Assembly (NCBI GenBank): GCA_964483905.1
Contig: CAZADP010000001.1
Coordinates: forward strand, 1-40,499
DNA: 40,499 bases
Direction of reading: 5' to 3'
DNA from: an uncultured Candidatus Bathyarchaeia archaeon
GTDB taxonomy: Archaea > Thermoproteota > Bathyarchaeia > Bathyarchaeales > Bathycorpusculaceae
Shown here: in pieces, positions 1 to 40,499 of the stretch
Layout: each line of letters opens with the position of its first letter
How positions within the stretch are numbered: position 1 is the first letter of the stretch
Notes under the pieces: generated by a model
What the model saw: only the letters and a program-made list of their open reading frames with translations
Databases searched by the model: none
What the model was told of the DNA's origin: nothing
Position numbers and translations under genes: made by a program

Positions 1-106
1 GGGTCGTCCCCGCTGGGATCCAGCCTTGGACATCAACGGCGACGGAGTTATTGACTTAATGGACTTGGCTCTAATAGCAAGAGACTTTGGGAAAAGATCT
101 GCCTGA
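1..106 (+). CDS. 3' end of an upstream secreted protein (partial CDS): second repeat of a C-terminal dockerin
   Basis: The frame starting at nt 2 reads GRPRWDPALDINGDGVIDLMDLALIARDFGKRSA, then TGA at 104-106. The P-R-W-[ND]-P linker, the D-x-N-x-D-G-x-x-D calcium loop and the helix ending ..FG match the second dockerin repeat of the other dockerin proteins in this window. Confidence 0.75.
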   Translation, partial: GRPRWDPALDINGDGVIDLMDLALIARDFGKRSA

Positions 107-361
107 CCAATAATTTCCCCAATCTTTTTCACCATTTTTTGTAATGTTCAGCTGAAATTACCTCGCGCTTTATTGTTCGCATCAAGTTTCTTGAACAGAG
201 TTTCTTGCTGTTCTCATAGAGACGTTATCTTTTCTTTTTCCATCTGGCCACTTGAAAAAGTCCTTCATTCCACCTGCTACCTTGTAAATTTTTTCAGCCC
301 TCTTCTTTGCTGTTTTCACTTTTTTATAGCGGGGAGGACTACTTTTTTCGATTCAAGCTCG

Positions 362-390
362 TAGAAGATAATTCCAGAATTCTTAATAGT
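362..390 (+). promoter_or_regulatory. Copy 1 of the shared 29-nt promoter cassette (near-palindromic core AATTCCAGAATT followed by TATA-like CTTAATAG)
   Basis: The sequence is TAGAAGATAATTCCAGAATTCTTAATAGT. It aligns position by position with the copies at 6219, 10868, 16771, 24115, 27510, 30053 and 36922. All copies are on the + strand, 31-65 nt upstream of a + strand start codon. Confidence 0.7.
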
Positions 391-441
391 TACGGTAATC
401 TATTAATGAATCGTATCCGCGCGCAAGAGGAGAAAGGGAAA

Positions 442-3400
442 TTGTTCAAATCTGAAAAGCTTTTCAGATTACTCCGCGTTTGCGCATTGATATTTCTGTT
501 GTCCTCCATGATGTTTGCATGGCAATCAATACCAGTGAGTTATCAAACGGATTCTGGGCAGCCCGTTTATCTCCATTCGGCAGAGCCCCTAGTGCCAGTG
601 CACATGCGCTCGAACGCTTCTCTGGAGCCTGTACATATGGACTCTAACATAACCCTTACGCCAGTACACATGCACTCACTTCAACCCTATCAGGAGCATT
701 TATATGCGCCCGTATGGACTGATTGGCACGAACTATACCCGAACTATTGCATGGATTGGCATCTCACCAGCTGGGAAGACACTGGTGAACCCTATGGCGA
801 ACTCAGTTCCAATGACCAAATTGACATGACTGATGAGTACGGAAATATGACATGGTTCCACGTAGACAGGATGACAATCACGCTCAACCTTTCATCCGTT
901 GATTCCCCCGAAGAGAAAATTTTCGTCGAGTTTAAGGGCCCGCCTGAGCGTTCTATAGATGTTCTTTACAACCCGAATTGCACCTACTGGCACGAAGTTT
1001 GGTCGATCTATAGCAACGTTTACCATATTATCAATTGGACTGATAATGGTGACGGCATCCTTAGTTTTTGCGATTACATTGACTTAAACCTGACTCAAGG
1101 CGCGATCCCTCCAGGGATTTACAGGTGGCACGTTGATGGAGTATCTAACGAACTCATCTTAAGGTGGAAGATGATGAACCCAATCTGTACTTGGTGGCAT
1201 GAGATCTACCCAAACTACTGCGGATGGCATCATCTTGCCAGTTGGGAAGACTCTGGTCAGCCTAAAGGGCAACTTAGTCCATGTGACCAAATCGACATGA
1301 TTAACGAAGAGACCGGAGAGAAGACCTGGTATCACGTGGACAGAATGACTGTCACCCTAAATGTGACGATAGGTCCTGAGCCAGCCGAGTGGATGAAGAT
1401 AGAATTGAAGACACAATACTTCGAGGAGATATATGAGGTCCTCAAGCATCCGAATGCGACTCTGTGGCACGAGGTTTATCCCAACTACTGCAATACTTAC
1501 GAGCTGACGCGGTGGGACTGGTGGTATGACGACAACTGCAACGGAGTTCTAGACGTCTGCGACCACATTTGGTTGCTGAATTGGTCAGAGCCTGAACCTG
1601 AAGAAAAGAGATATCACATTGAAGACATATCTTACGGCATCATCCTTGACCAAAAAATTGCAAATCCAGAGTCCACCGTCTGGCATGGGCTTTTGCCAGA
1701 GGAGGTCTACAGCAAGTGTTATAATATAAATTATTGGGAAGACACTGGCGAACCCTTCGGATTTCTAAGTCCTTGCGATCAGATTAGGATGCTGACTCCA
1801 GACCCGGCAGAACCATATTTGTGGTACCATGTGGACAGGGTGACCCTCGCCCTCAATGTGTCAAACGTGGATCATCCGGAGGAATTTATGTTCGTCGAAC
1901 TCAAGGAACCCTTTGAAGAACTTTATTTGGTCAAGACGCACCCAAATGAGACTCTTTGGCATGAGGTTTGGCCAAATTACAGCAAAGTCTATCACATTTC
2001 TGACTGGAAAGACAACTGCAACGGCGTTCTCGGCTACTGTGATCTAATTGAATTCACAGACCAAGGAGGATTTACCAGTTGGTGGCACGTTGAAGACTTA
2101 GCCATTGATATTGTCCTCAGCAAGAAGATTGCGAACCCGGTGTGTACCTATTGGCATGAGCTTTATCCAGAATTCTGCAACACATATCACGTCATTAGCT
2201 GGGAAGACAACGGCGACAGTTTTCTAAGCCCTTGTGACTGGGTTGACCTAGAACCCATAAACCCGTCAGGGCCAACAAGGTCATACCATGTGCAAAATGT
2301 AACACTCACTATGCTAGTGTCAAACGCTAGTGATCAGGCGATCACAATGTACATCGAGTTTGAGGGCAGTTTCCAAGAGATATATGAAATCAAGACAGCC
2401 CCCTCGGGTAGCCTATGGCACGAAGTCTATCCAGTATTCTGCAGGTATTACAATCTCACCAGCTGGGAAGACAATTGCGACGGTGTACTCAGTTACTGCG
2501 ACATAATTGATTTAACGGACTTGAATACTACGAAGCTGAGCCGGTGGCACATTGAAGAAGTAGCCATAGACATAGTTGTTAAGAAAAAAGTCCATGATGT
2601 AGCTGTCGATAATGTTTCATCCTTGTATCCTTGGGTATATCTAGGCAAAGTTGACCCTATCTTTGTAAATGTTACAAACGAAGGTGACTATACAGAGAAT
2701 GTTGTTGTCTACGTCTTCTATGGCACCTGTCCATGTAGCCTCGTTGCACCAAATCAGACAGTTGTTCTGATTCCCGGAGACACTAAGACGTTGACGTTCT
2801 ATTGGGACACAACGGGTTTCTCACTAGAAACCTACACCATAAGCGCGAACGCTGCAATTCTAATTGACGAAGACCCAGGAGACAACACACATGTAGGTTT
2901 CACCCTAGAAGTTAGGCCAATGCCGCCGCTCCATTGGAAAGAGTCCCGTCCAGATTATGCCCCAAGTGGAGTGCCCGACTTTGACCAACGGCAAGATCAG
3001 TGGGATAGCCCCCCCGGAAGTGGCGTGTGGACTTGGTGTGCTCCAACCGCCGTCGCCAACTCGTTGTGGTGGTACGACTCCAAATACGAACCGAACATCA
3101 TCTGGCCTCCGCCGAGAATAGTTGACAATAATCCGCTAGTCTCCTCATACAACCCAGGAGTATGGGATGACCACGATCCGCAGAATGTTATGCCGTTCGT
3201 GCAGCACCTAGCCTATCTTATGGACACAGACGGGCAGAGGACGGGAGTCAATCATGTTGGCACTTGGGTATCGGACATGCAAGCTGGAATCGCCCAGTAC
3301 CTTTCATGGACAGGAGTCAACCCGCTTGGAGACGTGAACGGCGACGGAAGAGTTAACCAGACAGACGTAGACGTAGTAAATGCGGCTTTGGGAAGCACGC

Positions 3401-4881
3401 CCGGAAACTCCACTTGGAATATGGCTGCTGACGTCTGGCCGGTTACCACAGGATGGCCAGTTTGGGGACCATCTGACAACGTGATCGAGGCGCAAGACCT
3501 TGCCCTCGTTACAGCAAATATGGGTCGAAGGGGCATGTTCTGTGAGTATACCGTCCAAGCACCAGACTTCTTCGACATAGAGGAAGAAGTTGAAAGGTCT
3601 GAAGACGTCGTCCTCATGCTTGGCTTCTGGAACTACGATCCAGGCACTCAGAGTTGGGTTAGAGAGGAATATCCATATGCATATGGATCAGGGCACTGCG
3701 TAACAGCAGCCGGAGTAAACTCGACCACTATGCAGATTGCCGTAAGCGACCCTGTTCAAGACAATGCTGAACCACCACCTCAGGGCACCAACGGACCGGG
3801 AAGAGTCATTCCAACCCCGCCGCATCCTCATCCACCAGCTCCACCAGAAACCGTGCATAATGACGCTTCTTATGTTTCCCAAGACACATATGCCGTCGCA
3901 CCAGTACCATGCCCCAGCGGCAACTGGACGCTAGTAAACTATTCCAGTCCACAGTATCCTGGGTGGAACATAACTGTAATAGAATGGTCAATCACGATAA
4001 CACCACTTCCATTTCACGATGTATCAATTATCAATGTTTCATCCTTGTTTCCTTGGGTGTATCAAGGGCAGATTGACCCAATCAACGTGACCGTTACAAA
4101 TGAAGGCGGCTTAACAGAAACCATTGACATCTACGCCTTCTTTGACGGAAACTTGGCTGCACCAAAACAGGTAGTCATCCTGGATCCGAGAGACACTAGG
4201 ACGTTGACGTTCAATTGGAACACGACAGGTGTACCAGTAGGAAACTACACGGTGGGCGCTAATGCCACAATCCCTATTGACGATGATCCAGCAGACAATG
4301 TGAAGACGGGAAATCAGCAAGAGATCCGGGAGCCACCATCGGAAATTCACAACGTATCCGTCACCAATGTCGCTACATCTAAAACTGTGATTGGGCAAGG
4401 GTATGCGATGAACATAAACGTAACTGTGGAAAACCCTGGCAACTATACTGAAACCTTTAACATTACAGCCTACTACAACGCAACTTCTGTTAACACAACA
4501 GAAGTCACTCTAACAAGCGGAAACAGCACCACGGTCTCGTTCACATGGAACACTACCGGCGTCGCAAAAGGCAATTACACCATAAGCGCCTACGCCCATC
4601 CAGTTCCAAGCGAAGTGGATATAGCGGACAACAACTTTACTTATGGCTCGGTTGTCGTTGCTATGGTAAGCGACATAACTGGTCCGGAGGGCTTTCCAGA
4701 CGGTAAGGTTGAGATGAGAGACGTTTCAATGGTGGCTAGACTGTTCGGCGTCAGCTATCCAGACCCAAAATACAACCCAAACTGCGACATAACCGGACCA
4801 ACACAGGGTGTAGCCGACGGAAAAATCGAAATGAGAGACGTAAGCCTAGTAGCCCGCAACTTCGGAAAAGTCGACCCATAA
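442..4881 (+). CDS. Secreted multidomain protein: signal peptide, 8 Trp/His/Cys-rich repeats, CARDB, C39/papain-like domain with an embedded dockerin, 2 CARDB, C-terminal double dockerin
   Basis: The track ORF is 307..4881, but the shared promoter cassette (362-390) lies inside it. I place the start at TTG 442, preceded by GAGGAGAAAGGG (428-439) as in the paralogous leaders; ATG 406 is the alternative. The signal peptide is FKSEKLFRLLRVCALIFLLSSMMFA. CARDB signatures are HDVAV, TENV..Y, TFYWDTTG and GDN. The C39-like motifs are WCAPTAVANSLWW (Cys codon 3037-3039) and GHCVTAAGV...IAVSDP (His codon 3694-3696). The C-terminus is DITGPEGFPDGKVEMRDV...FG / CDITGPTQGVADGKIEMRDV...FG. Confidence 0.85.
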   Translation: MFKSEKLFRLLRVCALIFLLSSMMFAWQSIPVSYQTDSGQPVYLHSAEPLVPVHMRSNASLEPVHMDSNITLTPVHMHSLQPYQEHLYAPVWTDWHELYPNYCMDWHLTSWEDTGEPYGELSSNDQIDMTDEYGNMTWFHVDRMTITLNLSSVDSPEEKIFVEFKGPPERSIDVLYNPNCTYWHEVWSIYSNVYHIINWTDNGDGILSFCDYIDLNLTQGAIPPGIYRWHVDGVSNELILRWKMMNPICTWWHEIYPNYCGWHHLASWEDSGQPKGQLSPCDQIDMINEETGEKTWYHVDRMTVTLNVTIGPEPAEWMKIELKTQYFEEIYEVLKHPNATLWHEVYPNYCNTYELTRWDWWYDDNCNGVLDVCDHIWLLNWSEPEPEEKRYHIEDISYGIILDQKIANPESTVWHGLLPEEVYSKCYNINYWEDTGEPFGFLSPCDQIRMLTPDPAEPYLWYHVDRVTLALNVSNVDHPEEFMFVELKEPFEELYLVKTHPNETLWHEVWPNYSKVYHISDWKDNCNGVLGYCDLIEFTDQGGFTSWWHVEDLAIDIVLSKKIANPVCTYWHELYPEFCNTYHVISWEDNGDSFLSPCDWVDLEPINPSGPTRSYHVQNVTLTMLVSNASDQAITMYIEFEGSFQEIYEIKTAPSGSLWHEVYPVFCRYYNLTSWEDNCDGVLSYCDIIDLTDLNTTKLSRWHIEEVAIDIVVKKKVHDVAVDNVSSLYPWVYLGKVDPIFVNVTNEGDYTENVVVYVFYGTCPCSLVAPNQTVVLIPGDTKTLTFYWDTTGFSLETYTISANAAILIDEDPGDNTHVGFTLEVRPMPPLHWKESRPDYAPSGVPDFDQRQDQWDSPPGSGVWTWCAPTAVANSLWWYDSKYEPNIIWPPPRIVDNNPLVSSYNPGVWDDHDPQNVMPFVQHLAYLMDTDGQRTGVNHVGTWVSDMQAGIAQYLSWTGVNPLGDVNGDGRVNQTDVDVVNAALGSTPGNSTWNMAADVWPVTTGWPVWGPSDNVIEAQDLALVTANMGRRGMFCEYTVQAPDFFDIEEEVERSEDVVLMLGFWNYDPGTQSWVREEYPYAYGSGHCVTAAGVNSTTMQIAVSDPVQDNAEPPPQGTNGPGRVIPTPPHPHPPAPPETVHNDASYVSQDTYAVAPVPCPSGNWTLVNYSSPQYPGWNITVIEWSITITPLPFHDVSIINVSSLFPWVYQGQIDPINVTVTNEGGLTETIDIYAFFDGNLAAPKQVVILDPRDTRTLTFNWNTTGVPVGNYTVGANATIPIDDDPADNVKTGNQQEIREPPSEIHNVSVTNVATSKTVIGQGYAMNINVTVENPGNYTETFNITAYYNATSVNTTEVTLTSGNSTTVSFTWNTTGVAKGNYTISAYAHPVPSEVDIADNNFTYGSVVVAMVSDITGPEGFPDGKVEMRDVSMVARLFGVSYPDPKYNPNCDITGPTQGVADGKIEMRDVSLVARNFGKVDP
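709..2586 (+). repeat. In-frame tandem array of 8 units, arranged as 4 long/short pairs of ~88 and ~68 aa, of an unassigned WHE-YPNYC-WED-CD-WYHVD repeat
   Basis: The recurring pattern is P-x-C-T-x-W-H-E-[LV]-[YW]-P-x-[YF]-C ... [ST]-W-[EK]-D-x-G ... [SY]-[PFY]-C-D-x-I-[DE] ... W-[YFW]-H-[VI]-[DE]. Units begin at aa 135, 222, 291, 382, 453, 546, 611 and 699 in track ORF numbering. Confidence 0.8.
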
Positions 4882-5159
4882 ACATCTCGCAAATCCCCCT
4901 CATTTTAGGAAAATCATAGCTTAGTTACACTGTTCAAGATGGACCACGGCGTACGCTAGTCTAGCTCGGTTAGGGCATCTGCTTGCTGTGCATCCTAATT
5001 GAAACTGAAACAACTTTAGAGAATGGATACACAACAAGTATGCTAAAACATACGTCTTTCAGACCTTTAGCATCTATTTTTAACGCGCGCTGTTTTTAAA
5101 ATCACTGCGCGCGCTTTACGCCAAATCTTAAGTCACAATTCTAGCATACTTTAGCGTAC

Positions 5160-6218: not shown

Positions 6219-6247
6219 TAGAAGATTTTTCCAGAAGCTTTTAATGC
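6219..6247 (+). promoter_or_regulatory. Copy 2 of the shared promoter cassette
   Basis: The sequence is TAGAAGATTTTTCCAGAAGCTTTTAATGC. It sits 65 nt upstream of ATG 6313, with the purine-rich leader AAAGGGGAAAGAAGAAGAG in between. Confidence 0.6.
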
Positions 6248-9291: not shown

Positions 9292-9296
9292 GCGCT

Positions 9297-10867: not shown

Positions 10868-10896
10868 TAGAAGATTGTTCCAGAAAACTTAATAGT
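10868..10896 (+). promoter_or_regulatory. Copy 3 of the shared promoter cassette
   Basis: The sequence is TAGAAGATTGTTCCAGAAAACTTAATAGT. It sits 31 nt upstream of TTG 10928, and GGGGGT (10916-10921) is SD-like. Confidence 0.7.
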
Positions 10897-16770: not shown

Positions 16771-16799
16771 TAGAAGATAATTCCGGATAACTTAAATAT
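16771..16799 (+). promoter_or_regulatory. Copy 4 of the shared promoter cassette
   Basis: The sequence is TAGAAGATAATTCCGGATAACTTAAATAT. It sits 61 nt upstream of ATG 16861, with the leader AAAAGGAGAAAGGAAAGGAGACGGAAAG in between. Confidence 0.7.
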
Positions 16800-24114: not shown

Positions 24115-24143
24115 TAGAAGATAAATCCAGAATCCTTAAATCT
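24115..24143 (+). promoter_or_regulatory. Copy 5 of the shared promoter cassette
   Basis: The sequence is TAGAAGATAAATCCAGAATCCTTAAATCT. It sits 37 nt upstream of ATG 24181, with the leader GGGAGAAAGGAACGAGC in between. Confidence 0.7.
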
Positions 24144-27509: not shown

Positions 27510-27538
27510 TAGAAGATAATTCCGGAATCTTTAAGTTC
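27510..27538 (+). promoter_or_regulatory. Copy 6 of the shared promoter cassette; core is the perfect palindrome ATTCCGGAAT
   Basis: The sequence is TAGAAGATAATTCCGGAATCTTTAAGTTC. It sits 46 nt upstream of ATG 27585, with the leader AAAGGAGAAGGGAGAAAAGATA in between. Confidence 0.7.
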
Positions 27539-30052: not shown

Positions 30053-30081
30053 TAGAAGACATTTACAGACGACTTAAATAT
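30053..30081 (+). promoter_or_regulatory. Copy 7 of the shared promoter cassette
   Basis: The sequence is TAGAAGACATTTACAGACGACTTAAATAT. Its TATA-like end overlaps the track start codon ATG 30080, which argues against that start. Confidence 0.6.
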
Positions 30082-30121
30082 GACACAAAGAAAACTATTA
30101 GTTGAGGGAGAAAGGAACAAC

Positions 30122-33100
30122 TTGCACAGCAGAAGATTAGCCTTTATTGTAATTTTGCTTGTTTTGTTCAGCATGATAGTGCTATGGTCACCGTTCGCAC
30201 GCGCTAGTATAGTTACTCCGATGTTTTTCATGCTGATTCCGTTATCATTTCTGTTTATTTCTAAGTTCAAGAAGATAGGAAAGAAGCTACGCTTAAAAAG
30301 CAAGTTTTCAATGCTTCTTTTGTTAACGATTGTTTTACTCGTCACAGTTTCAATCGCAAGGCTTTTCTCTGGAACAATGTTTCAAATAAGACCAGTACAT
30401 GCATGGTGGGACAACAATTGGGACTACTGCCGAAAAATCACAATCGATAGTAGTAAAGTGGATGAAGCGTTAACAAATTTTCCAGTGTTGGTTTATTTAA
30501 ACTCTTCAAGGATAAACTGGACCAACGTTCAAGACGATTTAGACGATTTGAGGTTCATAGCAGACGACAACTCAACTGTATTGAAATATGAAATAGAAAA
30601 TTATACTGTGAACAACGATGCATGGTTATGGGTTAAGATTCCGTCTGCTTCTAACACTTCTGACACTAGTTTCTTGATGTATTACGGCAACAACGCTTGT
30701 AGCAGTGGAGAAGACGCAGAGAATGTGTGGGATTCAAACTACGTAATGGTTCAACACATGAATGATAATACTACATCATCGATTTTAGATAGCACATCAA
30801 ATAACAATGATGGCACAAAGAAAGGAGCAGGAGAACCAACAGCAACAACAAGTGGAAAGATAGATGATGCTCAATATTTTGATGGGACAGATGATTATAT
30901 CGCTCTGGGTTCACCTGCCTCCCTACAAATTACTAATGGTACGCTTATGGCTTGGGTTAAAACAACTAACGCAGGGGGTTCATATAGAGATATCTTGGAT
31001 TATCCGCAAAGTTACGGCTTATGGACTAATGAAAATATATTTGGAGTTTACGATTGGGCGGGTGGTGGATGGAAAAGCAGTGGTGTTTCTATCAATGACG
31101 GTAATTGGCATCAAGTTGTATTTGTGAAACAGTATAATATCGCCAGTGGTTCGTTTTTCTATGTAGATGGGGTTCAAGTAGGTAGTGCTATTACCTATGC
31201 CTCAAATAGTTATACTAGTAATTTGAAGATAGGTGTAGAATCAAGTGGGCTTGGTGAAGCATTCAATGGAACAATTGACGAAGTCCGTATTTCAAACGCA
31301 TCAAGAAGCGGTGCTTGGATTAAAGCCTCATACTATTCAGGAAAAGATGAATTGTTAACGTTTGGGTCAGAAGAACTTGGTAACACCGCTCCAACAAACG
31401 ACCAGTTAACACTTGACTTGACTGGTGCAAGCTACAAAGGAACGAAGACACTTTTAGCAGGGAAGCAGGATTACAAGTTTGTGCATTTATGCACGGATGC
31501 TAATGGTGTCACAGACATAACCTATGCCGAGATTCGGCTGGACTGTAATGGTAAAAACGTGATTTTAAGAGCCACTAGAGGTTCTGGCGATACATGGACG
31601 TTCAGCGAGCAAAGCGACCCGTCCAACTACGTCACCCTCAACACAGGCGGTTCTTCGCACTCAACAAACGGAAACCAGAAGACCTTCAACTATCTTGTCA
31701 CTATAAACTGGGCTTGGGGAGACTCTGCCGAAACCGTAGCGGTTCAAGCCTACGTGATTGATTCGCAAAGCGCGAGTGATACTGACAATTATGCAAGCGT
31801 CTTCGGTGTTGAGGCTCACCTCACTTCCTTTTCATTGGCAGTTAATGATTATCGTTGTAACCCCTCGCAGACTTTGACCATGAGCGGTTACTGGTACTAC
31901 GATGGAACTTCAATAGCACCGCCAGACGGCAACTACAATGTTGTAGTCAAACTTTCAGGTGTGCAGAAAGGAAGCACAGACACGACTTTGGTTTCTGGGG
32001 CTTTCAGCATTAGCGATGTCACCGCAGAATCTTCCATTTCAAGCTACTCTTACACGGTTGAAGCGACATACATGAGTGGAGCAGGCTCATTTTCAGCTGT
32101 CATAGTGGATAGGATTAAGGTTTCATCCTATACAGTTTCAGACAGTAGAGCCAACATTAACGATAGTGTAAATATTGATGCTACCCTAGTCTATGAATAT
32201 AGTAGCACGGCAGTAACTACTGGAACTATCACGATTAACACTTATTCAGCGTCACATCAAGGTTCTGGCGTTTATAGAATTACTCGCACCAGCTCAAGCG
32301 TTACAAGTGTTACATACAACACAGTAGCAGGTTCAGAGTCAACACACGATTTAAACACGGTTAATCAAAATAGTCAATCTACAACAGTGATATGGGATAA
32401 TATAGTGGTTTCAGGCAAAGGAGTTACAGTTGGTAGAACAAATATTAATAGCTATCAGCAATATTGGTTTACACTAAGAAGTCAATATGACTCAGCAGTA
32501 GTTTCTTCTGGAACTGTAACACTTAACGGTTCACTCTCCGCTAGTTGGATTTCAGCCCGTAGTCGATGGGAATACAATACAACCAAATCTTCAGCTCAAG
32601 CTCAAGCCTTATATGCCGCATCAGTCAATTGGGACACTTACGGGATTACAAGTCTGTCCAGCCAAACCAGCAATAGCACAAGTATTGTTTGGGACAACAT
32701 TGTTGTTTCTGGTAAAGGCGTGACATCAACTCGGTTGAACATTAATTCTTATGCTCAGTATTGGTTTACTCTCCGTTCTCAATATGATGGAACTCCAGTG
32801 CAGGTTGGAACAGTTTCTTTAAACGGTTCTGTTTCAGCATCATACATTTCAGCTAGAACTCGTTGGGAATATAACGTTACGAAATCTACGGTTCAGAAGA
32901 TGTCGCTTTACGTGGCTTCGGTAAGCTGGTCTATGTATGATATAACAAGTCTTTCAAGTCAAACAGCTAACTATACTACAATAATATGGGACAGAATAAG
33001 AATAGATACATTAGGAGTTGTATCTGGAAGAATTAACGTAAACACTCAGGGAACGTACTACGCAACAGCAAGTTTAGAGTATGATAGTCATGCGTTAGGT

Positions 33101-36100
33101 TCTGGAGATAGTCTAACATTAAGTAGTCACATCTTTACTTGGAACGTTGGGAATAGCAGATTCGAGAATAATACGACAATGGCAACTGTAACTTCAGTTA
33201 CAATAAACAGTTTTACAAGTGGCAACGAAGCTACGTATGGTATTACTGCAGGAAATGTAAACGCTAAAACAACCTCGATAATATGGGATAGATTAACTGT
33301 CAACTATAAGGCAGTAGATAATAGCAGAAGAAACATAAACACTGCAGGAGCAATTAGATTTAAACTTAGGTCAGAGTATGATAGCGCTTTTGTGACTAGC
33401 GGTAGTGTAAGCATAAATGGAACAGGTGCAACATGGGACGCTGGAAATAGTTGGTGGTACATAAGTTACACGCTTAATGCAATAAATATCAGATATTTTG
33501 CCGTTAGTGCAGCGAACTGGAATACTTATGGTATAACTGCATTAAATTCTGGAGTTGCGACTAATACTACGTCCATAATTTGGGATAGGATACGAATAGA
33601 CACACTAAGCAAAACAGACACAGATGGAAGAGTAAACGTCAATAGCCAAGGAACATTTTACGCTACTGCAAGTCTAGAATATGATGGTCACGCTTTAGGT
33701 TCTGGCGATAGTTTAACTTTAAGTGACTGTGTTTTTACTTGGGTTAGTGCAAGAAGTCGTTTTGAATACAATGTCACAAAATCATCGGTTCAAGCCTTAA
33801 TAGTCAACACATTCACTTCTGGAAATGAGGCAACCTATGGCATAATAGTGGGCAACATTAACTCTCAAACAGGAACAATAATTTGGGATAGAGTTGTGGT
33901 AACAATTTCAGCCGATTCGACAGGTCCAGACGCAGGGCAAACTGTAAACTTCACGGTTACAGCGGTTTACGATTATGATGACGCTTCAGTTACATCTTGG
34001 ACGGTTAACATTTATCGTAACGGCACACATTTTGCAACTGGAAACTTTACAGACAAAAGTGATTCCGAAGTTAAATATCTATACACTACAGAAAACGTCA
34101 CAGACAACATATATGACTTAACAGCTTTTACAAGTAACACCGTAACAGTCGTTTGGGGTAACCTATTCATTGAAGTAAACGAAATAAATATTCAAGATAG
34201 TAGAATAAACATTGGGACTCAAGCTACAGTTTATTACCATTGCAGATTCAGTAGTAATCAAAGCAGTTGCACGACTGGAACATTATATGTTAATGGTACA
34301 AGCTTTACTATCAACAGCACAGGCTGGGCAACAGTCACCTTCACTTTCAGCGAGGTAGATAAGAAAGCATTAGTTGTTACCGCTATAGATGTAAACGGAG
34401 AAACAGATTTTCAACAAGGTCCATCAAATCCAGAGATAATTTGGGATAGAGTAAATGTGACAATAAGTGCTGATGGAACGTACGTTATCCTAAAAACAAA
34501 GGTTAATTTCACTATTACTGCAATTTATGAATTTGATTCGAATTCTGTAACGAGCTGGATAGTAAACATTTGTCGAAATTCAACGTATTTTGCAACAGGA
34601 AACTTTACTGATACACAAACATCACCTTCAGTCTATGAATATACGATTGAAAACATAACTGAAGGTACCTACGGATTAACAGTTTTTCAGTCAAACATGG
34701 TAACGGTCGAATGGTATAATAGTCCTCCGGTTGCTTCCTTCAATTATTCTCCTGAATTTCCGATCGCTGGTAACACTGTTACTTTCAACGCCTCAAAGAG
34801 CTACGACGCTGATGGCACGATCAATGTTTATAAGTGGAATTTCAGCGATGGGACTCCAATTGAATCTTCTCCTGCACCAACAATAATGCATGTATTCGGA
34901 ACGAGAGGAAACTACACAGTAACGTTAGCATTAGTCGACGATAAAGGCGCTGAAAACAAAACCGAGGCAACAATAACTATAATAGCTAATCCAACCGCTG
35001 ACTTCACCTATTCGCCAACATACCCAATCACTGGTGAAACTGTCACTTTTAATGCTTCAGCTTCAGCACCAAACGGCGGAACAATCATTAGCTATTTCTG
35101 GAACTTCAGCGACGGAACAACCGCTAACGTGTCGTCTGCTATAACAACGCACGCTTACCTGTCCTTTGGAAATTACACGGTAGCATTGACCGTAAAGGAT
35201 AGCGAAGGATTAACGAATTCCCGCTCTAAAATTATAACAGTAATAGATTATCCGTCTGCCAACTTTACCTATTCGCCAGCATATCCGATTGCTCGAGAAA
35301 CTGTCACTTTTAATGCTTCAGCCTCAAAACCTAACGGCGGCACAATTATCAGCTATTTCTGGGATTTTGGTGATGCAACAAACTCGACCGGACTTGTCAC
35401 AGGTCACATATATCACGCCTTTGGAACTTACGTGGTAACTCTTAAAGTCGTTGATAGCGAACAACTAGCCAACAGCACGTCTCAATTAATAAATGTAAGG
35501 CAGCATCCAACCGCCAACTTCACGTACTCTCCTCTGCTTCCAGTAGTGGGCCAAACTGTTACCTTTAACGCCTCATTATCAGAGCCCAATGGCGGCACAA
35601 TAATAACCTACACTTGGAATTTCGGCGATGCTCAAACAGGAACGGGCATGATAATTAACCACACCTATTCAACCTACAGAACTTATAACGTAACACTAAC
35701 AGTCACTGACAGCGAAGGACTTTCTAACACTTTTGCACAAATTGTCAGAATAATAATCCAACCTACCGCCGACTTCATGTATGCTCCAACCTACCCGGTC
35801 TTTAACCAATCCGTTCTCTTTGATGCTTCAATTTCTTACGATCCCGACGGGATAATCATGACCTACACTTGGAGTTTCGGGGACGGAAACGTAACAACAG
35901 TTAGCGGTTCCTCAATACGGCACGCGTTCGAAAACGCAACCACATATGATGTCACCTTAACAGTGACAGACAATGACGGCTTAACCAACACAATAACAAA
36001 ACGCATAACCGTATACACCACAGTTGTTTTAGTACATGATGTTGCAATAACTAGCATTGAGCCTAAGTCTTCATGGGTGTACCAAGGAAAAACACTTAAC

Positions 36101-36532
36101 ATCACGGTTACAGTTACCAATGAAGGAACCGATCTTGAAACATTTAACGTGAGTCTCTACTACGATAACACAAAAATAAGAACGCATACCGTTATCAACC
36201 TGTTTCCAGGCAAGAACTTAACGCTAACATTCGCTTGGAACACAACAAACCTTTATCCAGCTCAGTATAACATCTCCGCTGTAGCAACCATACTACCAGA
36301 AGAAACTGACACCGCTGACAACACACTAGTTTACGGAACAATAAGCGTATTATGGATGGGAGACATAAACCATGACGGCAAAGTTGACATGCGGGACATA
36401 GCGAGAATAGCAAGAGGCTTCGGCTCCCATAGCGGCGAACCACGCTACGATCCAAACTGCGATCTAAACAATGACGGCAAAATCGACATGCGCGACATCG
36501 CGCCCGCCGCGAAGAACTTCGGAAAGCCCTAA
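30122..36532 (+). CDS. Giant (~2136 aa) surface protein: N-terminal hydrophobic segments, DUF2341, LamG/concanavalin-like domain, ~12 Ig-like repeats, 5 PKD, CARDB, dockerin
   Basis: I place the start at TTG 30122 after GAGGGAGAAAGG (30104-30115). This gives MHSRRLAFIVILLVLFSMIVLWSPFARA; the track start ATG 30080 lies inside the promoter cassette. The DUF2341 part is WWDNNWDYCRKITID...FPVLVYLN...LRF...WV.IP....T.F.MYYGN. The LamG part is DGT..G......GKIDDAQYFDGTDDYI......LMAWVK......DGNWHQVVFV...G....YVDG.....IDEVRISN..RS..WI. The dockerin is GDINHDGKVDMRDIARIARGFG...CDLNNDGKIDMRDIAPAAKNFG. Confidence 0.85.
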   Translation: MHSRRLAFIVILLVLFSMIVLWSPFARASIVTPMFFMLIPLSFLFISKFKKIGKKLRLKSKFSMLLLLTIVLLVTVSIARLFSGTMFQIRPVHAWWDNNWDYCRKITIDSSKVDEALTNFPVLVYLNSSRINWTNVQDDLDDLRFIADDNSTVLKYEIENYTVNNDAWLWVKIPSASNTSDTSFLMYYGNNACSSGEDAENVWDSNYVMVQHMNDNTTSSILDSTSNNNDGTKKGAGEPTATTSGKIDDAQYFDGTDDYIALGSPASLQITNGTLMAWVKTTNAGGSYRDILDYPQSYGLWTNENIFGVYDWAGGGWKSSGVSINDGNWHQVVFVKQYNIASGSFFYVDGVQVGSAITYASNSYTSNLKIGVESSGLGEAFNGTIDEVRISNASRSGAWIKASYYSGKDELLTFGSEELGNTAPTNDQLTLDLTGASYKGTKTLLAGKQDYKFVHLCTDANGVTDITYAEIRLDCNGKNVILRATRGSGDTWTFSEQSDPSNYVTLNTGGSSHSTNGNQKTFNYLVTINWAWGDSAETVAVQAYVIDSQSASDTDNYASVFGVEAHLTSFSLAVNDYRCNPSQTLTMSGYWYYDGTSIAPPDGNYNVVVKLSGVQKGSTDTTLVSGAFSISDVTAESSISSYSYTVEATYMSGAGSFSAVIVDRIKVSSYTVSDSRANINDSVNIDATLVYEYSSTAVTTGTITINTYSASHQGSGVYRITRTSSSVTSVTYNTVAGSESTHDLNTVNQNSQSTTVIWDNIVVSGKGVTVGRTNINSYQQYWFTLRSQYDSAVVSSGTVTLNGSLSASWISARSRWEYNTTKSSAQAQALYAASVNWDTYGITSLSSQTSNSTSIVWDNIVVSGKGVTSTRLNINSYAQYWFTLRSQYDGTPVQVGTVSLNGSVSASYISARTRWEYNVTKSTVQKMSLYVASVSWSMYDITSLSSQTANYTTIIWDRIRIDTLGVVSGRINVNTQGTYYATASLEYDSHALGSGDSLTLSSHIFTWNVGNSRFENNTTMATVTSVTINSFTSGNEATYGITAGNVNAKTTSIIWDRLTVNYKAVDNSRRNINTAGAIRFKLRSEYDSAFVTSGSVSINGTGATWDAGNSWWYISYTLNAINIRYFAVSAANWNTYGITALNSGVATNTTSIIWDRIRIDTLSKTDTDGRVNVNSQGTFYATASLEYDGHALGSGDSLTLSDCVFTWVSARSRFEYNVTKSSVQALIVNTFTSGNEATYGIIVGNINSQTGTIIWDRVVVTISADSTGPDAGQTVNFTVTAVYDYDDASVTSWTVNIYRNGTHFATGNFTDKSDSEVKYLYTTENVTDNIYDLTAFTSNTVTVVWGNLFIEVNEINIQDSRINIGTQATVYYHCRFSSNQSSCTTGTLYVNGTSFTINSTGWATVTFTFSEVDKKALVVTAIDVNGETDFQQGPSNPEIIWDRVNVTISADGTYVILKTKVNFTITAIYEFDSNSVTSWIVNICRNSTYFATGNFTDTQTSPSVYEYTIENITEGTYGLTVFQSNMVTVEWYNSPPVASFNYSPEFPIAGNTVTFNASKSYDADGTINVYKWNFSDGTPIESSPAPTIMHVFGTRGNYTVTLALVDDKGAENKTEATITIIANPTADFTYSPTYPITGETVTFNASASAPNGGTIISYFWNFSDGTTANVSSAITTHAYLSFGNYTVALTVKDSEGLTNSRSKIITVIDYPSANFTYSPAYPIARETVTFNASASKPNGGTIISYFWDFGDATNSTGLVTGHIYHAFGTYVVTLKVVDSEQLANSTSQLINVRQHPTANFTYSPLLPVVGQTVTFNASLSEPNGGTIITYTWNFGDAQTGTGMIINHTYSTYRTYNVTLTVTDSEGLSNTFAQIVRIIIQPTADFMYAPTYPVFNQSVLFDASISYDPDGIIMTYTWSFGDGNVTTVSGSSIRHAFENATTYDVTLTVTDNDGLTNTITKRITVYTTVVLVHDVAITSIEPKSSWVYQGKTLNITVTVTNEGTDLETFNVSLYYDNTKIRTHTVINLFPGKNLTLTFAWNTTNLYPAQYNISAVATILPEETDTADNTLVYGTISVLWMGDINHDGKVDMRDIARIARGFGSHSGEPRYDPNCDLNNDGKIDMRDIAPAAKNFGKP
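32387..34720 (+). repeat. In-frame array of eight ~90-100-aa modules, each opening I-[IV]-W-[DG]-[RN]-[ILV]
   Basis: Unit starts are at about 32387, 32684, 32981, 33278, 33576, 33878, 34148 and 34436, with the array closing at 34706. The first five are spaced 297-298 nt apart. The sub-families alternate (WDNIVVSGKGV..R.NINSY.QYWFTLRSQYD versus WDRIRIDTL....GR.NVN.QGT.YATASLEYD.HALGSGDSLTLS). Confidence 0.8.
34720..36015 (+). repeat. Five tandem PKD domains (~258-nt period)
   Basis: The five units open PPVASFNYSP, NPTADFTYSP, YPSANFTYSP, HPTANFTYSP and QPTADFMYAP. Each carries TVTFNAS.S.PNGG.I..Y.W.F.D and ...Y.VTL.V.D..G. Confidence 0.85.
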
Positions 36533-36538
36533 TATCCA

Positions 36539-36921: not shown

Positions 36922-36950
36922 TAGAATATTTTTTCACAAATAATAAGTAT
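36922..36950 (+). promoter_or_regulatory. Copy 8 (degenerate) of the shared promoter cassette
   Basis: The sequence is TAGAATATTTTTTCACAAATAATAAGTAT. It keeps TAGAA.AT..TT.CA.AA and TAAGTAT in register, and sits 32 nt upstream of ATG 36983. Confidence 0.4.
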
Positions 36951-36982
36951 AAGTTGCTTGTACACATTTTACTGGCAGTTTA

Positions 36983-39900
36983 ATGAAAATTAGAACAAAT
37001 ACATTTTGCATAATTATGCTAACGATAATTCTGATGAGCACTTTGAGCGTAGCTTTCGATTTGAAATTGGTAGGAGCTGAGACAGGTGAAAAGAAGGGTT
37101 TTGACGCTTTTCTGAAAGAAACAAATGAGGTTGCACCATCGAGCAAGAACGATATAGCCAGCCCTGTAGAGACATCTGATGATCCTTGGTACAACATATT
37201 CCAGAAAAATCAAGGTATGGGAACGACTGGAGGACGCTCTTACAATACTTTCCCAAATTCAGAGGACAAAGGCGAAGTGAATAAGACCAAAGGATGGGAC
37301 GATTTCGCGTTTTTTGACGGCAACTTGACAAGTATAATAGTTGGCATCGACAACAAAGAGCCCAACGGTTATCTTCAACTAGAGAAATTAGTCTCCCAAT
37401 ATAATGGCAAAATCATTAACACAGTCGCGACCGAAGGCAAAATCATTGCTGCGGTTGTCGGGTTTTCAATTCACTCCGTGTCCGCTTTCATGCAAAATGC
37501 GCGTGCCGCCGAATTTACAAGCTACATCGAACCGAATATGAAGTTTCAGATAAACCTCGTCCCAAACGACCCTTACTGGAGTTATCAATGGGCCCCGGCA
37601 AAGATACGGGCGGACTGGGCCTGGAACACCACATTAGGCGACCCCTCAATTCGTGTTGCTGTTGTTGACACGGGAATCGACTATAATCATGAAGACTTAG
37701 CCGCCAACTATGTTCCGTTAGGCTACGATTGGGTAAACGATGATGCATACCCTATGGATGACAACGGCCATGGGACCCACTGCGCAGGCATAATCGCAGC
37801 CACAATTAACAACAGCATCGGCATAGCCGGTTTAGCCCGAGTTCGAATCATGGCAGAAAAAGCCCTAGATCAATATGGAGAGGGATATGCAGATTGGCTC
37901 GCCAACGCCATCATCCATGCCACAGATCAAGGTGCAAACATCATCAGCATGAGCTGGGGAGACTACTCGCAGAGCGAACTCATCCATGAAGCCATACAAT
38001 ACGCGTACAATGCTGGCGTCCTACTGGTTGCCGCTGCAGGAAACGAGAACACGGACTTAAAGTTGTATCCTGCGGCTTACGACGAGGTCATCGCTGTCAC
38101 GGCGACTAACATGTACGATGAAAGACCGGGGTGGTCAAATTTTGGAGATTGGGTGGAGTTAGCCGCACCAGGCGTGAGCATTTATTCAACGGTTCCTGGG
38201 GGATACGACCATGCAAGCGGCACATCAATGGCTGCCCCACACGTTGCTGGCGTGGCTGCATTAGCTTGGAGCCAGTTTCAAAACGTAACCCGTGATTGGC
38301 TTCGGCTTTGGCTGCGATACACTGTTGACGACATAGGGGATCCAGGTTTCGACATTTATTATGGATATGGAAGAATAAACGCGAGAAAGGCCGTTGAAGA
38401 AACTCTGCCTGAACATGAACTTATTATCATTGGATGGAAGACTCCTCCATACGTGAAGCCAGGTAATTCGGGAATTATAAATGCGACTATATTCAATTTT
38501 GGAAAAAACGATGAAAGCGATATGGAGGTACAACTCCTAACGAACGGCACATTGGTTGACTCTGCGTCCATAAGCTTTCTTGCAAGTGGCACCTCAACAA
38601 CGGTGAGTTGTTCATGGAGTCCAACAGTCGCAGGGTTATACAACCTTACTTTGTACGTGGTGCCTGTGCCCGGCGAAACAAGCCTAGAAAACAATGTGCT
38701 CTGGAAATACATTTACGTTGGATTTCCGGTGAAAGCTGTTGTTTTGCATTCTGCCGGAAACATTCAGGGCAGCATCATCACCAATTGGCAAGTGCTAAAC
38801 AGTGAATGGCATTGTTTCGGCGCCGCCATGGTCTACATTGACTATACAACATTAAACAAGGATAACCTCACCTATGAAGACATCACCACTACCGAAGCAG
38901 ACGTGTTAATTATTTCATGTGCGTACGATCCATACGCGGGCTGGCAGTTCACAGACTCTGAAATTGAAGCAATAAAGCGATATGTTCTTGAGGGGCACGG
39001 GTTAATAGCCACGGCTGGAACCCTTTATAACTGGGTTCCAAACAACAACAAGCTAGCACCATTATTTGGACTAAACGAAACCACCATGTGGACATCCACA
39101 GGAACAGATCTTCTGCATTTGGTGAACGCAACTCATCCTATATTCACTAATGTTCCAAACCCGCTGGTGTTTCCACAGGTCGGAACCGCGCTTCCCTACG
39201 ACGGCCGGTGGGACTCAAACGAGTTGTGGGACGGCAAGTATCTTGCACTCGGGCATTATCAGGAAAGCGCGATAGTCATGTGCAGAGGCCTAGTTTACAT
39301 TTCTCCATGGCTTGAAGTCATACCGCCGTACTATCACCATCACCTGCAACTACTCTACAACGCAATAACATGGTCCACTTACCAGAAACCTGAACATGAG
39401 CTCGTAGTATCCCTTGAGTGTCCCGCATATCTTGAACCCGCTGAATCAGCATTGCTAAATGCGACTGTCGTCAACAGGGGTTTAAACAACGAAACAAATG
39501 TGGCCTTGTTCTTATACATCGATGGCTTGGAGGTCAACTCTACAACGGTGCCCAAACTGGTCGTAGACTCTTCGTACACGATAGAATACCTATGGACTCC
39601 AGTTATTGAGAAGACATACAATGTGACATCGTTTGCGCCGCCATTACCAGATGAGGAAATTACGTTCAATAATGTGGAATCATCCATAGTCAACGTCCGA
39701 ATATGTCTTGGAGAAATCCTTTACGATGAATCTCATGACAATAGGAACTTCTTAGATCCGACCGACCCAATTAACCACGGTGACGCTTGGGGCTACACCA
39801 CATGGGCTAAGATTGTGACGGAAGCTGGATACAGAATTACCAAGTGGCTTCCCGGCGACGGAGAGCTAACTCTGCCTATTCTGTCGCACTACGATATCCT

Positions 39901-40499
39901 TGTAATATCCATGGCTAGGGAAAGCTTCACTGTCTCAGAGATTTCTGCAATACAGACTTGGGTTCATTTAGGAGGAAGCCTGTTCCTTGTAGGTGAGGCA
40001 GACAACTATGCCGGTGACCCTGCGAGGTTCAACCCCGTGATAACAGAGTTTGGAATGGAGTTTGACCTTTACGGTGAAATCTACGAACATGTCATATCCG
40101 ACTTGGCTGTTCACCCGATAACCAGAGGGCTCTCTCAGTATGAGGTAGCCTACTGCGGCGTGCTGATTCTGTCTCCACCCGCTCAGTGGCTAGGAAGGAA
40201 TGGCACAGGAAGAGTTACATTAGCATGCTCTGAATATGGATCAGGACGAGTCGTCGTAGCGGCCGACACCAACACTTTCGCGGACAACTACGGGTTCCAA
40301 GACCCGCTGAGCCCTATTTACGAGCACTCAAAAACATTATCGCTTAACATATTAGACTGGCTTCTTCCACAAGAACACGACCTCGCTGTATCTCTGGATG
40401 CACCAAGTTTTCTTGCGCTTGGCACCTCGTTGCTGCTGAATGCAACTGTCACCAATCGGGGATTAAACAACGAGACGGATGTGGAGCTATTCTTGATGG
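36983..40499 (+). CDS. Secreted subtilisin-like serine peptidase (S8) followed by alternating CARDB-like and GATase1-like (ThuA/DUF4350-type) modules; 3' end runs off the window
   Basis: This ORF is not in the track because it has no stop in the window; I translated it by hand. The signal peptide is MKIRTNTFCIIMLTIILMSTLSVAF. The catalytic triad motifs are VAVVDTGID (Asp 37667-37669), HGTHCAGI (His 37769-37771) and GTSMAAPHVAG (Ser 38225-38227). The CARDB-like units begin HELIIIGW, HELVVSLE and HDLAVSLD. The interleaved modules contain VLIISCAY...HGLIATAGT and ILVISMARE...GGSLFLVGEAD...GRVVVAADTN. Confidence 0.85.
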   Translation, partial: MKIRTNTFCIIMLTIILMSTLSVAFDLKLVGAETGEKKGFDAFLKETNEVAPSSKNDIASPVETSDDPWYNIFQKNQGMGTTGGRSYNTFPNSEDKGEVNKTKGWDDFAFFDGNLTSIIVGIDNKEPNGYLQLEKLVSQYNGKIINTVATEGKIIAAVVGFSIHSVSAFMQNARAAEFTSYIEPNMKFQINLVPNDPYWSYQWAPAKIRADWAWNTTLGDPSIRVAVVDTGIDYNHEDLAANYVPLGYDWVNDDAYPMDDNGHGTHCAGIIAATINNSIGIAGLARVRIMAEKALDQYGEGYADWLANAIIHATDQGANIISMSWGDYSQSELIHEAIQYAYNAGVLLVAAAGNENTDLKLYPAAYDEVIAVTATNMYDERPGWSNFGDWVELAAPGVSIYSTVPGGYDHASGTSMAAPHVAGVAALAWSQFQNVTRDWLRLWLRYTVDDIGDPGFDIYYGYGRINARKAVEETLPEHELIIIGWKTPPYVKPGNSGIINATIFNFGKNDESDMEVQLLTNGTLVDSASISFLASGTSTTVSCSWSPTVAGLYNLTLYVVPVPGETSLENNVLWKYIYVGFPVKAVVLHSAGNIQGSIITNWQVLNSEWHCFGAAMVYIDYTTLNKDNLTYEDITTTEADVLIISCAYDPYAGWQFTDSEIEAIKRYVLEGHGLIATAGTLYNWVPNNNKLAPLFGLNETTMWTSTGTDLLHLVNATHPIFTNVPNPLVFPQVGTALPYDGRWDSNELWDGKYLALGHYQESAIVMCRGLVYISPWLEVIPPYYHHHLQLLYNAITWSTYQKPEHELVVSLECPAYLEPAESALLNATVVNRGLNNETNVALFLYIDGLEVNSTTVPKLVVDSSYTIEYLWTPVIEKTYNVTSFAPPLPDEEITFNNVESSIVNVRICLGEILYDESHDNRNFLDPTDPINHGDAWGYTTWAKIVTEAGYRITKWLPGDGELTLPILSHYDILVISMARESFTVSEISAIQTWVHLGGSLFLVGEADNYAGDPARFNPVITEFGMEFDLYGEIYEHVISDLAVHPITRGLSQYEVAYCGVLILSPPAQWLGRNGTGRVTLACSEYGSGRVVVAADTNTFADNYGFQDPLSPIYEHSKTLSLNILDWLLPQEHDLAVSLDAPSFLALGTSLLLNATVTNRGLNNETDVELFLM

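Follow-up and report, generated by a model that had tools for sequence, protein, structure and literature searches.

A dense cohesin-dockerin gene island with peptidase cargo on a Bathyarchaeial contig

Contig CAZADP010000001.1 was analyzed here over its entire 40.5 kb (40,499 nt; hereafter the window), and encodes a series of secreted proteins built from cohesin and dockerin modules. Our analysis supports its description as a dense cohesin-dockerin island that includes a four-cohesin scaffoldin-like protein, and whose recognizable catalytic cargo consists of peptidases, not glycosidases. There are 17 credible genes, and both ends of the contig cut into genes of this same kind. At least ten of the encoded secreted proteins end in a dockerin, and five of these also carry cohesins. 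All 17 genes were scanned against Pfam, with gathering scores of 22.9 bits for Dockerin_1 (PF00404), 24.1 bits for Cohesin (PF00963) and 24 bits for Peptidase_C39_2; statements below that a family is absent from the window genes refer to Pfam matches at E ≤ 0.01. An NCBIfam scan of the window genes added nothing to the Pfam result, and searches of the 40,499 nt for tRNAs and Rfam families came back empty. Genes are named by the lowest coordinate of their open reading frame (ORF).

The cohesins are found in five proteins, all encoded on the forward strand. The product of gene 27585 (27585..29846) consists of a signal peptide, four consecutive cohesins (27687-28175, 28176-28643, 28644-29135 and 29136-29633) and a dockerin (29646-29843), and the Pfam Cohesin model matches it with 98.5 bits in four stretches. 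Three other proteins contain one secure cohesin each. Gene 15819 (15819..16574) encodes a minimal adaptor of 251 amino acids (aa), composed of a signal peptide, a cohesin (15909-16373; 33.3 bits) and a dockerin (16389-16571; 29.8 bits). The adaptor encoded by gene 24181 (24181..26019) combines a cohesin (24253-24690) with two CARDB domains (58.4 bits), two PKD domains (PKD_4, 129.7 bits) and a dockerin (25828-26016; 39.8 bits); its Cohesin match of 23.2 bits (E = 8.7e-5) falls marginally under the cut-off. In the adaptor encoded by gene 26055 (26055..27407), a cohesin (26163-26639; 34.4 bits) is followed by CARDB (32.1 bits) and a dockerin (27213-27404; 36.8 bits). All seven of these cohesins are also matched by a cohesin hidden Markov model (HMM) of our own, and a profile made from them matches 20 solved cohesin chains, including 3l8q (E = 3e-11), 1g1k (1.2e-6) and 2vn5 (1.7e-6). 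They form two groups: identity is 39-62% among the modules of 27585 (group A), 32-38% among the three single modules and 21-29% between the groups.

The fifth protein is a Cys-rich secreted product of gene 16861 (16861..18273), with two beta-rich modules (16966-17475 and 17467-18054) ahead of a dockerin (18076-18270). An earlier annotation made from the DNA letters and ORF translations (the sequence-only reading) had counted these two modules as cohesins, for a total of nine; the other seven stand, and these two were not demonstrated. Neither has a Pfam match. Only three homologues of the protein were found, and AlphaFold gave a pLDDT of 34.8 from a 4-sequence alignment. Aligned to a broad cohesin profile with hhalign, module 2 scored clearly above the domain controls (92.8%, E = 4e-7, over only 45 columns), and is probably cohesin-like. 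Module 1 (52%, E = 1.4e-4) did not stand out from the top-scoring CARDB negative control (33.5%, E = 4.4e-4). We therefore count seven certain cohesins, one probable one and, in module 1 of 16861, a mere candidate. That every cohesin protein also ends in a dockerin, as the sequence-only reading had observed, is true of all five, and all five have N-termini that are signal-peptide-like in sequence and hydropathy. The build of every cohesin protein is supported as that of an adaptor: a signal peptide, one or more cohesins and a C-terminal dockerin. No match to a carbohydrate-binding module (CBM) or S-layer homology (SLH) family was found by Pfam among the window genes.

The claim of 11 dockerins was confirmed in full, with every one located where it had been placed and the duplicated loop-helix segment seen in all. 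Seven of the 11 reach the Dockerin_1 cut-off. These are the dockerins of the three single-cohesin adaptors just described, an internal dockerin in the product of gene 406 (3325..3531; 36.9 bits), the C-terminal dockerin of the giant protein encoded by gene 30080 (36341-36529; 37.9 bits) and, counted only because they pass when scanned alone, the dockerins ending at 18273 (24.2 bits) and 29846 (25.2 bits). For the remaining four, Dockerin_1 is still the top Pfam match: 21.3 bits for a gene tail cut by the contig start (forward strand, gene end at 106), in which positions 2..103 encode the second half of a dockerin (DINGDGVIDLMD loop and helix); 19.5 bits for the C-terminal dockerin of 406 (4663..4878); 21.9 bits for that of 10928 (13082-13297); and 18.6 bits for that of 13370 (15443-15637). 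An HMM built from the ten complete window dockerins retrieved exactly these 11 from the six-frame translation, including the half module at the contig start (E = 4.6e-13) and the C-terminal dockerin of 406 (86 bits). It found no further copies in the window, and the minus strand was empty.

Each of the ten complete dockerins has two tandem loop-helix segments, and the Ca-ligand positions and helix motifs are kept in all 11 modules. The canonical segment of ~22 residues opens with a 12-residue Ca-binding loop, D-x-[ND]-x-[DN]-G-x-[IV]-x-x-x-D, which is followed by a helix. Among the 21 loops, 14 are canonical and seven are extended. Six of the extended loops are 17-18 residues long and follow the pattern D-[ILV]-T-G-(P)-x-x-G-x-P-D-G-K-V-x-M-x-D; the seventh, the second loop of the internal dockerin, has a longer and irregular extension. 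Both segments are extended in the dockerins ending at 4881 (loops DITGPEGFPDGKVEMRD and DITGPTQGVADGKIEMRD) and 13300, and one extended loop is combined with one canonical loop in those ending at 15640 and 29846. In the four single- or double-module adaptor proteins and in the 30080 giant, every loop is canonical. We attribute the four scores below the Pfam cut-off to the extended loops. On related contigs the extended variant is a minority, at ~9 of 137 modules. We offer only as a hypothesis, drawn from eleven modules, that the extended-loop dockerins of three cargo proteins and the canonical dockerins of the adaptors might represent two binding specificities; the correlation of loop type with protein class is not general across homologues. 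The extended loop was also considered as a general mark of C25 cargo and rejected, as most dockerin-bearing C25 homologues have canonical loops.

Three of the proteins in the window are peptidase-type, all encoded on the forward strand. The first, encoded by gene 13370 (13370..15640), consists of a C25/gingipain-like cysteine peptidase region (13460-14570), CARDB and the C-terminal dockerin given above. This assignment, already proposed in the sequence-only reading, is borne out by fold and by homologues. The N-terminal ~480 aa before CARDB have no Pfam match, and the ~370-aa peptidase region shows no PF01364 match at E ≤ 1. Most homologues (40-70% identity) do carry PF01364, some of them under the name C25 family cysteine peptidase [Candidatus Bathyarchaeia archaeon], and many likewise end in dockerins. 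The peptidase region was modeled by AlphaFold with a pLDDT of 90.3 (25-sequence alignment), and the top Foldseek match of the model is gingipain R (1cvr; E = 1.6e-13, TM 0.63), with CHAT/Csx29 caspase-like proteases next. A fold search was needed to see the relation to gingipain, because a PDB profile search with the C25-like family returned dockerins only. His262-Gly263 and Cys300 are invariant in the 25 sequences and presumably correspond to the catalytic dyad of gingipain.

The second peptidase-type protein is the ~1,500-aa secreted product of gene 406 (406..4881), which contains Cys repeats, CARDB-like domains, a C39-like domain, CARDB (4382-4602) and the C-terminal dockerin. The C39/papain-like domain noticed earlier lies near the Pfam threshold and has the support of its family. 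Residues 871-1210 (2917-3936) match Peptidase_C39_2 with 22.2 bits (E = 2.3e-4) in two stretches that flank the internal dockerin. The family comprises 724 representative clusters, of which 287 reach E ≤ 1e-30, and 8 of 14 sampled members match Peptidase_C39_2 (best E = 1.2e-6). Cys911 (3037-3039) is nearly invariant and His1130 (3694-3696) invariant. The internal dockerin sits between this Cys and His, and the insert is kept in all 14 members scanned, which indicates that it is a fixed feature of this papain-like domain family. Upstream of the domain, aa 130-760 (~694-2586) hold approximately nine copies of a 65-90-aa repeat with paired cysteines in each copy (W-H-E-[VL]-Y-P-N-Y-C ... W-x-D ... 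L-S-x-C-D-x-I-D ... W-[YH]-H-V-[DE]); the repeat has no Pfam or PDB match, and no homologue of it was found in the related loci fetched for comparison.

The third is the S8 subtilase encoded at 36953..40498, the gene cut by the contig end, which the sequence-only reading had likewise recognized. Its catalytic domain (37649-38371) matches Peptidase_S8 with 190.3 bits and contains the motifs VVDTGID, HGTHCAG and GTSMAAPH; two CARDB domains and a GIFT/DUF4350-like region follow. Over 834 aa, the protein shares 64% identity with a 2,133-aa ORF from another Bathyarchaeota genome (L003:301-6699), which has a dockerin at its C-terminus and a cohesin-dockerin gene downstream. Because this homologue ends in a dockerin, the full window S8 protein likely does so as well. 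Two GIFT/DUF4350/ABC_transp_aux-like domains occupy aa ~590-1182 (38700-40498; IFT52_GIFT E = 2.2e-7) after CARDB, an arrangement repeated in the 2,133-aa homologue.

Two more dockerin-bearing forward-strand genes encode cargo of other types, and in both the domains named in the sequence-only reading were found. Gene 10928 (10928..13300) encodes a secreted protein with a rhodanese domain (11021-11293; 66.8 bits) with an intact active-site loop (CKSGARS), a NosD-type beta-helix (11297-11923; 58.5 bits), CARDB (32.1 bits) and the C-terminal dockerin. Calling such cargo "redox" was an over-reading, because rhodanese is a sulfurtransferase and the NosD-type matches are generic right-handed beta-helices. 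The NosD/Beta_helix label denotes a pectin-lyase-like fold and is silent on copper or N2O; these beta-helices could bind glycans just as well. The giant encoded by gene 30080 (30080..36532) has N-terminal hydrophobic segments, DUF2341 (30536-30772) and Laminin_G_3 (30881-31321; 66.8 bits), followed by ~1,100 aa without a family match, five PKD domains, CARDB and the dockerin. No PDB sequence match was obtained for its middle region, and single-sequence PDB searches with this region and with the unassigned regions of 16861, 13370 and 406 returned only noise or dockerin matches. The reported lack of any glycoside hydrolase (GH) signature also held: no GH, polysaccharide lyase (PL), carbohydrate esterase (CE) or CBM family was matched in any window gene.

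Comparison of upstream regions identified a promoter-like motif of ~26 nt, TAGAAGAT-www-TCCrGAA, with a TATA-like CTTAAAT 2-3 nt further downstream. At up to three mismatches it is found ten times in the window, against 0.64 expected. Six copies have no or one mismatch; all are on the forward strand, 27-77 nt before start codons as measured from the end of the 18-nt core. Exact copies precede genes 406 (362..379, TAGAAGATAATTCCAGAA and then the TATA-like box), 6313 (6219..6236), 16861 (16771..16788), 24181 (24115..24132) and the scaffoldin-like 27585 (27510..27527), and a copy with one mismatch precedes 10928 (10868..10885). Weak forward-strand copies are located before 30080 (30053-30070, three mismatches) and before the S8 gene (36922-36939); with these two included, the distances to start codons span 27-94 nt. 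Genes 13370 and 26055 lack a separate copy; only 70 and 36 nt, respectively, divide them from the gene upstream, with which each is probably co-transcribed. None was found before the minus-strand or regulatory genes of the window. The motif also bears on gene starts. Several called starts are probably too far upstream (307 versus 406, 27558 versus 27585, 30080, and 36953 versus 36983), since the copy at 362-379 lies inside called ORF 307, making ATG 406 (MNRIRAQ...) the probable real start, the ATG at 30080 is within a TATA-like box, and hydrophobic signal segments begin after an internal Met.

The same motif occurs before cohesin/dockerin ORFs in four other Bathyarchaeota genomes (L001 9919; L004 688 and 11006; L006 1255; L007 10527), and an exact 26-nt version in at least 120 metagenome stretches (loci L009-L128), where the next ORF starts a median of 51 nt downstream. 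Among these downstream ORFs, 92 of 96 have a signal-peptide-like N-terminus; our cohesin HMM recognizes 72 of 96, and Pfam Cohesin 52 of 94. Of the ten complete motif-driven ORFs that have no cohesin, nine are hydrophobic at the C-terminus, in most cases through a transmembrane (TM) helix with a KRKRK-type tail, like the product of gene 6313. The motif shared upstream of six to eight window genes gives independent support to the co-regulation that the sequence-only reading had suggested, and together these results are good evidence that it acts as a common cis-element of surface-protein genes, which would place them under joint control. Its TTCCrGAA core is palindromic, suggesting a dimeric regulator. 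The ArsR-type helix-turn-helix (HTH) gene of the window (20521-21060) was considered for this role and found no support; homologues of it and of the neighboring ParA gene were found only on the near-identical contig L056 and at none of the other motif-bearing loci.

Gene 6313 (6313..9291, forward strand) encodes a secreted protein with four CARDB and two DUF11 domains, a C-terminal TM helix and a KRKKK tail. No cohesin or dockerin was found on it, and it is likely a membrane-anchored surface protein of the same regulon. Its C-terminal tail, (P)-x-V-G-G-[YE]-... followed by a TM helix and a KRK-rich end, recurs in motif-driven ORFs without a cohesin and resembles a sorting or anchoring signal, without the PGF motif of PGF-CTERM.

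The notion that these genes form one island is overstated. Five to six minus-strand or unrelated genes interrupt them (for a membrane protein, a TM protein, the ArsR-type HTH, a ParA-type ATPase and an anchored beta-helix protein), the number of transcription units is six or more, and the system extends beyond this locus: the motif, cohesins and dockerins with other cargo are found on at least 120 other metagenome stretches. Named relatives of the scaffoldin-like and C25-like proteins belong to Candidatus Bathyarchaeota/Bathyarchaeia, as do seven of eight species-representative genomes in which a relative is encoded, so that homology most likely places the contig in Bathyarchaeia; two JGI contigs (L016 and L056) share the N-terminal protein sequences of genes 27585 and 24181. 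The fetched loci contain 136 dockerin-bearing ORFs in 909 kb. In a random 84 of these, Pfam matched Dockerin_1 in 47, Cohesin in 22, SBP_bac_5 in 21, CARDB in 21, PKD in 14 and NosD in 3; there was no GH family among the 25 families listed for the 84 proteins. SBP_bac_5, the family of the OppA/DppA/NikA-type solute-binding proteins, is the commonest recognized dockerin cargo domain on related contigs after Cohesin, tied with CARDB (e.g., L041:757-3066). A recurrent operon (L027 and L041) consists of the motif, a cohesin-only protein (~620 aa), a ~335-aa dockerin protein and a cohesin-CARDB-dockerin protein. Cohesin-only proteins of this sort, which are common under the same promoter on related contigs and absent from the window, could terminate or anchor chains.

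We favor, with moderate confidence, the reading that the window is one slice of a lineage-wide cohesin-dockerin surface display system in Bathyarchaeia. Its proteins would leave the cell by Sec-type export, and the Ca-binding dockerins would then plug into cohesins. The group A cohesins of 27585 could collect up to four dockerin proteins, while the single-cohesin adaptors (15819, 24181 and 26055) and the scaffoldins' own dockerins would permit chaining or branching. Other parts of the genome would encode the partners, cohesin-only or anchored, that terminate such a chain. Peptidases and binding modules (CARDB, PKD, LamG and beta-helix) would in this way be clustered at the cell and scavenge detrital protein, a role in keeping with the many dockerin-tagged peptide-binding proteins of OppA type seen on related contigs. 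A more specific version is possible, though rather doubtful: a coordinated "proteolysome", in which lineage-specific extended-loop dockerins would load the C25, C39 and S8 peptidases onto the four-socket scaffoldin, canonical dockerins would chain scaffoldins to cohesin-only bases and OppA-type receptors, and one promoter/operator element would control the whole. If true, this would be a physical mechanism behind the detrital-protein degradation proposed for Bathyarchaeia.

Several points weigh against a lineage-wide display system as we describe it. Pairing of cohesins and dockerins within the locus is something that we infer purely from the modules, and attachment to the cell is assumed. No membrane or S-layer anchor was seen on any window cohesin protein, by hydropathy or as an SLH match in Pfam, and the window holds 11 dockerins for seven to nine cohesins. 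Four of the 11 dockerins are below the Pfam cut-off, and the 5-6-residue insertion in seven of the 21 loops might affect Ca binding or cohesin recognition. The internal dockerin may be a structural rather than a docking module. Peptidase activity of the cargo is predicted, and the beta-helix and LamG modules could target glycans. The 26-nt search pattern was derived from these very genes and may over-sample paralogous families, and the taxonomy was taken from homologues, not marker genes.

It could be supposed instead that the island alone encodes a discrete, self-sufficient, self-assembling proteolytic and adhesive particle, with all partners and their regulation in the locus, a stricter form of the sequence-only reading. 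We consider this unlikely. The concentration of 11 dockerins and at least seven cohesins in 40 kb, the four-cohesin scaffoldin, the three peptidase-type cargos and the promoter motif common to the genes would all suit such a particle, but there is no anchoring or terminating cohesin protein among them, and every one of those present needs a partner for its own dockerin. The minus-strand and unrelated genes within the island argue in the same direction, as does the contig itself, both ends of which fall within genes of this kind, and the occurrence of motif, cohesins and dockerins on at least 120 other stretches indicates a regulon and partner pool wider than the locus.

Less likely still is that the modules are real and do not pair, the dockerins serving as Ca-binding stabilizing tails or tails for other ligands, and the cohesins as Ig-like spacers, with no higher-order assembly. 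The surplus of dockerins over cohesins, the non-canonical extended loops of the four dockerins below the cut-off and the fixed insertion of the internal dockerin in its peptidase family all speak for this. Against it, cohesin and dockerin genes are tightly clustered and have a promoter element in common, both here and in related genomes, the Ca-ligand positions and helix motifs are conserved in all 11 modules, and specific archaeal cohesin-dockerin binding has been demonstrated in other species, according to work cited in PMC9012536. A conventional glycan-degrading, cellulosome-type system with catalytic domains too divergent to recognize is highly improbable: GH28 and several PL families do share the pectin-lyase fold of NosD/Beta_helix, Laminin_G_3 belongs to the ConA-like lectin/glucanase superfamily, and ~1,100 aa of 30080 (aa ~420-1580) and ~630 aa of 406 lack a family match, but GH, PL, CE and CBM families are absent from all window genes, no such family is among the 25 listed for the 84 related dockerin proteins, and the recognizable catalytic domains are all peptidases or a sulfurtransferase.

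The surface display reading has its closest archaeal precedent in the anaerobic methanotrophic (ANME) archaea. In these, single proteins were reported to join one dockerin to as many as five cohesins, and dockerins were often found on OppA/NikA-type binding proteins (Chadwick et al., 2022; PMC9012536). The 27585 protein fits the scaffoldin-like description given there: it is archaeal (as judged from homologues), secreted and non-cellulolytic, with at least two cohesins and one dockerin. Both cases combine a single dockerin with several cohesins (up to five in ANME, four here) and non-GH cargo, both have SBP_bac_5-type proteins as prominent cargo (on related Bathyarchaeial contigs the commonest non-structural type, 21 of 84), and in both the function is deduced from genomes only. 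The differences are that the ANME lineage is Halobacterota whereas this one is Bathyarchaeia, that the cargo here consists of peptidases, a rhodanese-beta-helix protein and a LamG giant, that a dockerin protein with an S-layer domain was not seen in the window, and that a conserved promoter-like motif before cohesin genes was not found reported for ANME in the text consulted.

The first non-cellulosomal archaeal cohesins and dockerins were those of Archaeoglobus fulgidus, and a 2009 survey found archaea to be without multi-cohesin scaffoldins (Bayer, 1999; Haimovitz, 2008; Peer, 2009; all as cited in PMC9012536). By the same account, A. fulgidus resembles the window in having proteins that join a cohesin to a dockerin outside a cellulolytic context, and binding was shown there experimentally; it differs in having a couple of modules and no multi-cohesin scaffoldin, in contrast to 11 dockerins and at least seven cohesins in 40 kb here.

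Among bacteria, a cellulosome-like complex has been proposed for Candidatus Stygibacter (Cloacimonadota), with dockerin-tagged S8 and C25 peptidases and polypeptide degradation as the suggested role (Williams et al., 2021; PMC8542988). The likeness extends to signal-peptide enzymes with C-terminal dockerins, including S8/S53 and C25 gingipain-like peptidases, and to a multi-cohesin scaffoldin. In contrast, Stygibacter is bacterial and has dockerin-tagged GH18 and GH57 enzymes, and its 3755-aa scaffoldin bears CBM2/CBM3 and a C-terminal cell-attachment domain; none of these is present here (PMC8542988). Bacterial cellulosomes with adaptor scaffoldins use the same Pfam families, Cohesin and Dockerin_1, and share with the window proteins the combination of cohesins and an own dockerin; the adaptor cohesins of Acetivibrio cellulolyticus ScaB are the best solved match of the window cohesin profile (3l8q, E = 3e-11). 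Variants that do not act on cellulose are known, such as the Ruminococcus bromii amylosome (PMC4611034) and the mucinolysome (PMC12997984). Unlike cellulosomes, the window has no GH, PL or CE enzymes, CBM, SLH or sortase anchoring scaffoldin, a third of its dockerin loops carry a 5-6-residue insertion, and the host is archaeal. We conclude that, strictly speaking, the locus does not qualify as a cellulosome; both of its module families are those of cellulosomes, and a similar mode of action is plausible.

It has long been suggested in the sediment literature that Bathyarchaeia feed on detrital protein by means of extracellular cysteine peptidases such as gingipains (e.g., PMC6752024), and full-text literature searches found no paper on a Bathyarchaeial cohesin-dockerin system. 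What the sequence-only reading observed is for the most part right, and its interpretation is upheld in part. The assembly principle is already known from ANME and Cloacimonadota; what is new is a Bathyarchaeial example, with gingipain-fold and C39-like cargo, extended-loop dockerins and, above all, a conserved promoter-like element that links the genes across genomes. Bathyarchaeia rank with the most abundant archaea in anoxic sediments and are almost uncultured. For such organisms the island provides a concrete hypothesis of how peptidases could be kept at the cell, namely as dockerin-tagged enzymes with sockets supplied by neighboring genes, the four-socket scaffoldin among them, and the motif is a handle by which the regulon can be defined in metagenomes and metatranscriptomes. 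For cellulosome research, the system adds an archaeal lineage with multi-cohesin adaptors and unusual extended-loop dockerins, which could serve as an orthogonal pair in designer assemblies.

The remaining genes of the window lie between and beside those of the cohesin-dockerin system. The ArsR-type HTH gene is convergent with a ParA/MinD-type ATPase gene (21088-21912, minus strand), and both are probably unrelated passengers. Next to the latter, 21964-24012 (minus strand) encodes a NosD beta-helix protein, which has a TM segment toward its C-terminal end. The 1.4 kb at 4882-6312 contain no convincing gene; the sole ORF (5257-5568; 103 aa, Cys-rich) has no family match.

The gene at 18561..19676 (minus strand) encodes a TM-anchored protein without a Pfam match. 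As seen by sequence alignment, members of its family are ~300 aa long, have a single TM helix at the N-terminus and share R-x-H and M-G-C motifs that are invariant. There are 25 matching ORFs at ~24 of the fetched loci (including L095:14-925, L052:3070-4002, L108:9987-10892, L101:12178-13086 and L009:752-1654), located directly beside motif-driven surface-protein genes, and the neighboring products often end in VGGYS...TM...KRKRK. The family could represent a membrane-bound clan-CD-type cysteine peptidase that processes the adjacent surface proteins; hints of C25 are weak (6 of 19 members, Pfam E ≥ 0.03; hhalign probability 5%).

A second membrane protein, encoded at 9362-10693 (minus strand), has ~6 TM helices and one CARDB domain. 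An N-terminal C-V-T-C is present, and two of its TM helices carry "PC" motifs (FSPCLII and LDPCIAP). These helices recall DsbD/CcdA thiol-disulfide transporters, and NCBIfam gave a weak match to the DsbD part of TsoB. The protein may be relevant to the many Cys-rich secreted proteins encoded nearby.

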